The translations under genes and the position numbers were made by a program. Source: a virus (Duplodnaviria > Caudoviricetes). From it: a DNA stretch of 64,000 nucleotides. Of this stretch, positions 17,921-18,056 are shown in pieces. Every line of letters begins with the position of its first letter. The first letter of the stretch is position 1. The DNA is taken from positions 64,001 to 128,000 of IMG/VR virus record IMGVR_UViG_3300025784_000006; one strand, 5' to 3'. The notes below the pieces were generated by a model. That model made no database searches. It was not told where the DNA came from and was given only the letters and a program-made list of their open reading frames with translations.

Positions 17921-18056
17921 GACCACGTCGAGTGAGCGGACCATTGTTTGACAGAGTACAAGTCTGTTGCCTCTCCGCGAGGCGTAGATCCCAGTTGGCG
18001 GGGTCTGAGGGAGTTGAACCCTCCGCATGTTGGGTCCGATCGAGGGACGTGGTCGC
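17921..18056 (-). ncRNA. Y-RNA-like, circularly permuted tRNA-like RNA (anticodon UGU)
   Basis: Minus-strand order: GACCACGTC..CGGACC / T-arm GAGGG-TTCAACT-CCCTC / AGACCCC-G-CCA-ACT-GGGATCT / D-arm GCCT-CGCGGAG-AGGC / anticodon arm ACAGA-CTTGTAC-TCTGT / GGTCCG..GACGTGGTC. The ends pair (9 bp + 6 bp). Confidence 0.8.

Follow-up and report, generated by a model that had tools for sequence, protein, structure and literature searches.

A 64,000-nucleotide (nt) stretch of phage DNA carries, on its minus strand, a gene for a circularly permuted tRNA-like RNA that belongs to a conserved RNA family. The stretch, here called the window, comprises bases 64001 to 128000 of IMG/VR virus record IMGVR_UViG_3300025784_000006 (Duplodnaviria; Caudoviricetes), which is 202,778 bp long with an estimated completeness of 83%. 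Genes of this RNA family are linked to a gene whose product is Ro60-like, as judged by its architecture and predicted fold. On balance, we think that the RNA is a new topological variant of the tRNA-mimicking Y RNAs and that it partners this divergent Ro60-like protein, a reading that draws on sequence comparison and structure prediction.

The family is seemingly undescribed. It is absent from Rfam, and we found no description of the RNA or of the gene cassette that accompanies it in the literature searched, although the 22 phage YrlA candidates of Chen et al. (2014; Tables S1 and S2 and Fig. S1) might include variants of this topology.

The RNA family and its permuted cloverleaf

A first-pass annotation, made from the sequence alone, had proposed a permuted tRNA mimic at this locus. 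All of the arms were found on the minus strand where that annotation had put them, and RNAfold returned the same structure as both the minimum free energy (MFE) fold and the centroid (-55.5 kcal/mol). Shuffled versions of the sequence averaged -41.1 +/- 3.8 kcal/mol (z = -3.78), and none of 200 was equally stable. The RNA gene in the window (copy 1) has a 9-bp terminal stem, followed inward by a 4-by-4 internal loop, two pairs, a 1-by-1 mismatch, and a 6-bp inner stem. Inside the inner stem are a T arm, an acceptor hairpin, a D arm, and an anticodon-like arm, in that order. The 3' acceptor strand (18006-18000) and the 5' acceptor strand (17992-17986) form six of seven pairs, with an A4.C69 mismatch, and the 3' strand is followed by G and CCA (17999-17996) and then by the linker ACT. 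The permuted order of T arm, acceptor, and D arm is that of the YrlA class of bacterial Y RNAs, here with a closed anticodon arm in addition, and the terminal stem sits at the position of the variable arm, all as the first-pass annotation had it (Table 1). We refer to the stem outside the cloverleaf, with its internal loop, as the handle.

Copy 1 had no Rfam match at the gathering score in a search of the window, and a search of 701 nt at E <= 10 returned a chance match to the T arm alone. A 66-amino-acid (aa) open reading frame over the RNA (17894-18094, minus strand) was taken as spurious; aligned paralogues are gapped there by 1, 7, 14, and more columns.

Five copies of the RNA were found in this genome by BLAST and covariance model (Table 1). 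Four of them are inside the tRNA array, at 1 to 20 nt from neighboring tRNA genes. ARAGORN predicted 44 tRNA genes in the whole genome, nearly all in a single minus-strand array at 175 to 189 kb, and none in the 64-kb window. Copy 3, at C1:188597-188696, has lost both the D arm and the anticodon arm, whereas its terminal stems, T arm, and acceptor hairpin are retained. Three paralogues share the invariant string AAUGGUC..C.CACUCGA. One covariance model (R1) was built on three copies from this genome and a second (R2) on 12 sequences; copy 1 scored 149 and 115 bits, respectively.

Relatives of the Ro60-like protein are encoded at 65 viral loci, and for 50 of these the complete record was searched with R2. 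There were matches at E <= 0.001 in 48 of the 50. We counted a sequence as a family member if its R2 score was at least 60 bits, because inspected tandem-tRNA junctions scored below this (43.7 bits in mycobacteriophage Bxz1 and 36 bits or less in Virus Rctr197k). This gave 50 full-length matches, spread over 34 of the 50 records. Members ranged from 60 to 119 bits, compared with 44 bits or less at the inspected junctions. A 53.8-bit match in one record (G056) fell below the threshold. The Bxz1 match was rejected as a member; it overlaps an annotated tRNA-Pro, its handle aligns poorly, and we regard it as a tandem-tRNA junction. A pattern scan of viral contigs returned nine stretches. Three of seven new contigs had no model match at E <= 1e-8, and these three were therefore taken as chance matches.

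The proposed fold was borne out by covariation among homologues. In an alignment of 47 matches (44 distinct), which was fitted to the model and so favors the structure, standard pairs filled 91.8% of cells, compared with 37 to 48% when the partners were slid by 1 to 3 columns. Two-sided changes occurred in 36 of 39 pairs, the observed values were reached by none of 500 shuffles, and compensatory pairs were present in each of the six helices. Despite the fitted alignment, we judge the signal to be real, given the control with slid partners and the MFE folds, which were obtained independently.

Conservation was counted in 40 distinct members of at least 60 bits, after removal of three duplicates and four rows below 60 bits. 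GG was present in the D loop of 39 members and a 7+7 acceptor stem in 38, with two-sided changes at all seven acceptor pairs. U was at position 8 in 33 members; copy 1 has A. The anticodon-like loop has 7 nt in 30 members, a purine at position 37 in 29, and U33 in 17, and the 30 seven-base loops contain 22 different triplets. The UGU triplet that the first-pass annotation had singled out in copy 1 is not conserved. Two other features that it had emphasized are true of copy 1 but not of the whole family. The intact CCA is encoded at positions 74 to 76, straight after the discriminator, in 12 of 40 members (about 0.6 expected), and the others have CUC, CCG, or other sequences there. Likewise, all four arms are kept in copy 1 but not in the paralogue without D and anticodon arms. 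The most conserved part of the RNA outside its tRNA-like features is the handle, not the anticodon loop, and the motifs ACAnG ahead of the T arm and ACUC in the 3' internal loop are specific to the family (Table 1).

Neither ARAGORN nor Rfam called the native sequence as a canonical tRNA. For computational de-permutation, we cut the sequences in the acceptor loop, rejoined them, removed the handle, and then ran ARAGORN. A tRNA was called in 26 of 47 cases, three of them with irregular loops, and copy 1 was called as tRNA-Thr(UGU). From these calls and the conservation counts, we conclude that the RNA replicates the elbow and acceptor of a tRNA, whereas its anticodon identity is free to drift.

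Acceptor loops of the CUC type resemble, by eye, the 3' trailers of the phage's own tRNA genes. Many of these genes (C1 175-189 kb) do not encode CCA and continue with C-U-C or a similar sequence, and RNA copies 2 and 3, with the acceptor loops ACUCUAC and ACUCUUAC, are alike in this respect. Virus Rctr197k has an unannotated member (KX853510.1 175493-175630, minus strand; L131 19251-19388; 76.8 bits), which lies after a ThiF-like gene and one more gene and directly before a tRNA-Met gene. The tRNA array of the present phage also holds an 85-nt element (G000:C1:177288-177372, minus strand; L073 26-110). Its 9-bp terminal stem is perfect, with CAUCGAGCACACGG following the 5' strand and ACUUG preceding the 3' strand, and encloses three small non-tRNA hairpins (z = -2.3 for the element). 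R2 did not detect this element, possibly a sixth RNA with a handle but with another kind of body.

The Ro60-like protein and the linked cassette

The RNA is genetically tied to the Ro60-like gene and its cassette. The copy nearest to the Ro60-like gene was within 10 kb of it in 28 of 34 records (5.6 expected at random); in 24 records, the distance was no more than 6 kb. The RNA matches, all 50 of them, were on the same strand as the Ro60-like gene. The Ro60-like start codon is 150 nt downstream of copy 1 in the window, and the nearest copy was downstream of the Ro60-like gene in 23 of the 34 records.

Searches by tblastn with the window's neighboring proteins at loci L004 to L068 gave the cassette order Ro60-like, E2-like, JAB, and E1. 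The counts in Table 1 come from 3-kb flanks, which shortened many loci. The same order is repeated in contigs of metagenome-assembled genomes (MAGs; L162 to L183). The RNA lies at one end of the cassette, before the Ro60-like gene in the window and after E1 in other loci. In 10 of 11 loci, 182 to 391 nt separated the E1 match from the start of the RNA behind it; in the remaining one, the distance was 899 nt, and tRNAs lay between them. Many related loci have tRNA arrays next to the cassette. However, two 13.8-kb loci (L170 and L176) have the RNA, and no tRNA was found in either. A 253-kb record with terminal repeats (G054) has a 70-bit member 30 nt upstream of a divergent gene of the protein family. 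The 550-aa product had no Pfam match and aligned to the family with an hhalign probability of 99.5%. The two stretches of G054 that were examined, of 3.7 and 3.1 kb, showed no tRNA.

Virus Rctr197k is the only GenBank entry encoding the Ro60-like protein. The protein is also encoded by 24 metagenome-assembled contigs, many of them labeled Myxococcota, and members of at least 60 bits were present in 7 of 23 MAG loci. That count excludes L161, in which the Ro60-like gene is identical to that of the window. L161 is a 155-kb contig in a bacterial MAG and is probably a phage contig that was binned with the bacterium.

The Ro60-like protein has at least 98 relatives, many on contigs longer than 100 kb. 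Pfam recognized a vWA domain only (residues 374-519), which is C-terminal, as in Ro60. There was no sequence match in the PDB, where a profile search reached vWA chains only, and no family in PHROGs or NCBIfam. A full-length AlphaFold2 model had a pLDDT of 79 and a pTM of 0.47. When this model was compared with the PDB by Foldseek, the top 11 matches were all Ro60/TROVE proteins (E = 3e-8 to 2e-6; 535-596 columns; TM 0.33-0.44). In a VIA search with the same model, vWA domains filled the list and left the N-domain uninformed. Therefore, the N-domain was modeled alone (pLDDT 84). Among 48,161 representative chains, VIA then gave Z >= 8 for three only, and all were Ro60: Deinococcus radiodurans Rsr (Z = 9.9; 269 residues aligned; root mean square deviation [rmsd] 8.5), Thermus phage phiLo Ro60 (8.7), and Xenopus Ro (8.5). 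The next chain had a Z of 6.6. Foldseek with the N-domain alone gave weak matches (best E = 6.8e-3), with Ro60 in 8 of the first 10. An hhalign comparison of the full-length protein with six canonical phage Ro proteins gave a probability of 81% (E = 1.2e-5) over 207 columns, which covered the end of the helical domain and the vWA domain; the probability was 13% against Bxz1 Ro as a single sequence. On these models and alignments, homology of the protein to TROVE is probable but not proven.

Several results weigh against a Ro60-type partnership for the RNA. The first-pass annotation had called the downstream gene a TROVE gene, but the likeness of its product to Ro60 is one of predicted fold only; Pfam TROVE (PF05731) matched 0 of 35 relatives at E <= 10 but found Bxz1 Ro, the control, at 98 bits. 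The VIA alignments had rmsd values of 7.7 to 8.5 A, and by that tool's own caution, Z scores below about 13 are weak for helical repeats. The full-length hhalign probability was carried mainly by the vWA domain, and the N-domain alone gave 0.2% against canonical phage Ro. In 6 of 34 records, more than 10 kb separated the Ro60-like gene from the nearest RNA copy, and the four array copies in this genome are about 100 kb from the gene. The published CGAA/GNCGAA Ro-binding motif is approximated only. Finally, mycobacteriophage Myrna has a canonical Ro and nevertheless holds, in its tRNA array, an element with this architecture but without the handle motifs (see below).

The GGGTA-TAGA box ahead of copy 1 is spaced from the RNA much as such boxes are spaced from start codons elsewhere in the window (by eye). 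There are 34 further minus-strand GGGTA sites, and boxes precede the start codons of several genes. Going by sequence, these boxes may be a candidate phage promoter for leaderless transcripts. A scan for sigma-70 consensus promoters found none. The window has a G+C content of about 66%, and nearly all of its long open reading frames are on the minus strand. Directly upstream of the RNA, an 829-aa VIT and vWA protein is encoded (18095-20584, minus strand); this neighbor is conserved in 0 of 65 related loci. Eukaryotic vaults contain a VIT-vWA protein (VPARP), a TROVE protein (TEP1), and a small RNA.

Table 1. Coordinates of the RNA, its parts, and nearby genes (window positions, except for the C1 coordinates of the whole record)
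Feature	Position	Strand	Support or remark
RNA gene copy 1, circularly permuted closed-acceptor tRNA-like RNA	17921-18054	-	MFE fold, R1/R2, covariation
Terminal stem, 5' strand GACCACGUC	18046-18054, pairs with 17921-17929	-	9/9 pairs with two-sided changes; 94.7% of cells paired
Handle, 5' side: internal loop CCUC, GA pair, bulged U, inner stem CGGACC	18033-18045	-	
Inner stem, CGGACC with GGTCCG	18038-18033 with 17942-17937	-	8/8 helix pairs with two-sided changes; 85.5% paired
Junction CAACAUGCG with family motif ACAnG	18024-18032	-	ACAnG in 40/40 distinct members
T arm GAGGG-UUCAACU-CCCUC	18007-18023	-	T loop UUCRANY in 40/40; helix 100% paired
Closed acceptor hairpin, 7-bp stem, loop GCCAACU (discriminator G, CCA, ACU)	17986-18006	-	
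D arm, GG in loop, AC ahead (tRNA positions 8-9)	17969-17983	-	
Anticodon-like hairpin ACAGA-CUUGUAC-UCUGU	17951-17967	-	5/5 pairs with two-sided changes; 98.6% paired; loop unconserved
3' junction CAAACAAU, inner stem GGUCCG, internal loop with CACUC	17930-17950	-	ACUC in 33/40
GGGTA-TAGA box, candidate phage promoter element	18063-18071	-	12 nt before RNA 5' end
Ro60-like gene, 592 aa, helical N-domain and C-terminal vWA/MIDAS	15992-17770	-	
E2-like gene (label only; no Pfam match)	14927-15982	-	Homologue downstream of Ro60-like gene in 52/65 viral loci
JAB-like gene	14449-14943	-	Weak Pfam Prok-JAB match, E = 6.5e-4; homologue in 23/65 loci
ThiF/E1-like gene	13543-14337	-	Pfam ThiF, E = 6.9e-19; homologue in 23/65 loci
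HK97-fold major capsid gene	20888-21802		In the window
RNA copies in the genome	C1:81921-82054 (copy 1), C1:179600-179733, C1:179371-179518, C1:178763-178904, C1:188597-188696		

A proposed mechanism and its alternatives

We propose that the handle, as a stem made from the 5' and 3' ends of the RNA with a conserved internal loop and the motifs ACAnG (5') and ACUCG (3'), would be the site at which the protein docks. It would exit a complete cloverleaf at the variable-arm position, and the acceptor stem would be sealed by its loop. Because the elbow residues of the T and D loops are conserved, the body of the RNA may be L-shaped and show a tRNA-like surface to a tRNA-binding factor, or it may be handled by tRNA enzymes. 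RNase P and the tRNA 3' processing enzymes might make the ends of the array copies, since these abut tRNAs by so few nucleotides. Copy 1 would probably be transcribed from the GGGTA-box promoter, either by itself or together with the cassette, whose mRNA it would then lead.

A bolder form of this proposal, which we consider improbable, makes the RNA the core of a new phage ribonucleoprotein. A ring of the Ro60-like protein would grip the tRNA replica by its handle, and E1, E2, and JAB would act on the particle or be directed by it. If this were true, the RNA could be cut to a two-piece tRNA, the free CCA end of which might be charged or tagged. During infection, the particle could also flag damaged tRNAs, or host proteins that bind tRNA, for ubiquitin-like modification.

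The alternative that survives best, although we think it unlikely, is that the RNA is an element of tRNA arrays that works without the Ro60-like protein, as a decoy or sponge for host nucleases that target tRNAs or as a processing or stability module. The first-pass annotation had likewise suggested that the RNA might be a decoy or sensor for anticodon nucleases. Its linkage to the cassette would then reflect a shared tRNA-array neighborhood. Four of the five copies do lie between tRNA genes, many loci have tRNA arrays beside the cassette, and the diversity of the anticodon-like loops would fit as well. So would the element in Myrna (EU826466.1 92692-92823, plus strand; L160 393-524), a 50.9-bit R2 match in an unannotated 139-nt gap between tRNA-Met and tRNA-Ala. 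It has the identical architecture from the terminal stem to the anticodon-like arm (z = -3.45) but is without ACAnG and ACUCG. Therefore, the body plan exists apart from the handle motifs. However, the RNA and the cassette also occur together in examined DNA that showed no tRNA, as in the 64-kb window, the G054 stretches, L170, and L176. Furthermore, outside the tRNA-like features it is the handle and not the anticodon loop that is most conserved, and copy 3 keeps the handle although its anticodon arm is absent.

We give a very small probability to a true permuted or split tRNA gene. Here, a cut in the acceptor loop by RNase P and 3' enzymes would expose CCA or allow its addition, and the product would be a charged two-piece tRNA with a very long variable arm. 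The complete cloverleaf, the 7-bp acceptor, the excess of CCA after the discriminator, and the ARAGORN calls after de-permutation agree with this idea, and Mycobacterium smegmatis YrlA is cut by RNase P in its AS loop and gains CCA in vivo (excerpts of PMC4201824). However, U33 is present in fewer than half of the members, the loop is not 7 nt long in 10 of 40, and copy 3 has no anticodon arm at all. An ordinary tRNA-Thr(UGU) is available to the phage along with 43 other tRNAs, the RNA termini are without a visible bulge-helix-bulge (by eye), and a decoding tRNA does not need a conserved handle.

The probability is smaller still that the RNA is a cis-acting leader of the Ro60-like mRNA, which would make it a tRNA-mimic operator through which the encoded protein or a tRNA-binding factor autoregulates the cassette. 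Copy 1 is close to the start codon, a scan found no terminator-like site between them, and the G054 RNA is also just upstream of its gene. However, the nearest copy is downstream in most records, typically after E1, and other copies are in tRNA arrays; therefore, the RNA would act in trans in most genomes. Lastly, the RNA is almost certainly not debris from the junction of two decayed tandem tRNA genes, a possibility that the first-pass annotation had allowed for and to which the scores of such junctions (up to 31 bits with the YrlA model and 44 bits with R2) and the dimeric-tRNA origin proposed for YrlA (excerpts of 10.1101/312249) lend some color, because the acceptor strands pair and covary with each other at 7 of 7 pairs and the terminal stems do so at 17 of 17, and members outscore the inspected junctions.

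Significance and comparison with known systems

Particles of Ro60 and Y RNA have been described in animals, in bacteria, and in a few phages. The family described here has a whole cloverleaf and is present in multiple copies, and many giant phages and MAG contigs have it linked to a cassette for ubiquitin-like conjugation. Its genes are unannotated in public records, as in Rctr197k, and they are invisible to Rfam, ARAGORN, and Pfam. If the RNA does partner the Ro60-like protein, the family may indicate that RNA surveillance and ubiquitin-like tagging are connected in phage infection, a link so far unexplored.

The red alga Cyanidioschyzon merolae has permuted tRNA genes in which the 3' half precedes the 5' half and a short linker connects the acceptor strands. 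Their transcripts are circularized at a bulge-helix-bulge motif and, from this intermediate, become normal decoding tRNAs. In contrast, the phage RNA has no bulge-helix-bulge that we could see at its termini by eye, and it has a conserved handle and, in many members, an irregular anticodon loop.

The closest likeness is to YrlA, which has a Ro-binding stem with GNCGAAN0-1G and stem-loops designated V, T, AS, and D (excerpts of PMC4201824). YrlA genes are on the same strand as the Ro60 gene and no more than 4 kb from it, in 254 bacteria and 22 phages (same excerpts). The YrlA anticodon stem is formed by nt 15 to 27 and 83 to 93 and is without an anticodon loop (Wang et al. 2018, excerpts of 10.1101/312249), and in the Rfam structure line for YrlA, a helix closes directly around T, AS, and D. 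Both RNAs have a permuted T arm, a closed acceptor hairpin, and a D arm, and both keep the elbow residues. Both also form a stem from their two ends, are encoded on the same strand as a nearby Ro60-type gene, and occur in phages. However, the terminal stem of YrlA continues the anticodon stem, and its variable region precedes the T arm, as far as the excerpts describe it. In the new family, a closed anticodon-like hairpin with 5 bp and a 7-nt loop follows the D arm, and the terminal stem exits from the variable region. Therefore, the terminal stem is in the variable-arm position, and the permutation point is different.

Profile searches agree that the RNA is distinct from YrlA, as does the covariation of its anticodon-like hairpin, and in this the first-pass annotation was right. 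The YrlA model (RF02553; cutoff, 69 bits) did not match copy 1 at E <= 10 in 701 nt. Its best matches in the whole genome were tandem-tRNA junctions (31 bits), and copies 4 and 5 reached 22 bits over model positions 24 to 84. Conversely, R2 matched the Bxz1 YrlA region at the T arm only (12 bits). The best YrlA match in Bxz1 itself (AY129337.1 129979-130055) is partial, at 32.5 of 69 bits, just upstream of the canonical Ro gene. The RF02553 cutoff alone is thus a strict test, and annotation at the gathering score would miss this Bxz1 match. R2 had no match of at least 60 bits in six phages with a canonical Ro, and no member at that score was found in a cultured phage, although Myrna, with its 50.9-bit element, is cultured. 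Where YrlA has GNCGAA, three of the five copies in this genome have CnCGA(A/U/G), and elsewhere the sequence is mostly AGA or CGA (by eye). The partners differ too, Ro60 for YrlA and a candidate outside Pfam TROVE for the new family. Processed M. smegmatis YrlA, in the excerpts available, has a 7-bp acceptor stem like that of the phage RNA and the two-piece form that the first-pass annotation had imagined. However, CCA is gained there, whereas it is encoded in a minority of members here, and the topology is different.

Thermus phage phiLo also encodes a Ro60, with the candidate RNAs Yrl1 and Yrl2 upstream of the gene (PMC12135203). Structures of phiLo Ro60 (9kop and 9l5y) were among the best fold matches of our Ro60-like protein. 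However, Yrl1 and Yrl2 are defined by CGAA in a bulge inside the RNA, and PMC12135203 uses neither "tRNA-like" nor "YrlA" in its text. Furthermore, phiLo Ro60 is a UniProt homologue of Ro60 (PMC12135203), whereas the Ro60-like protein here is undetected by Pfam TROVE. If our favored reading is correct, the phage RNA would be a second, independent design of a Ro-associated tRNA mimic. When the two designs are compared, the elbow and the 7-bp acceptor are kept, but the anticodon sequence is not.

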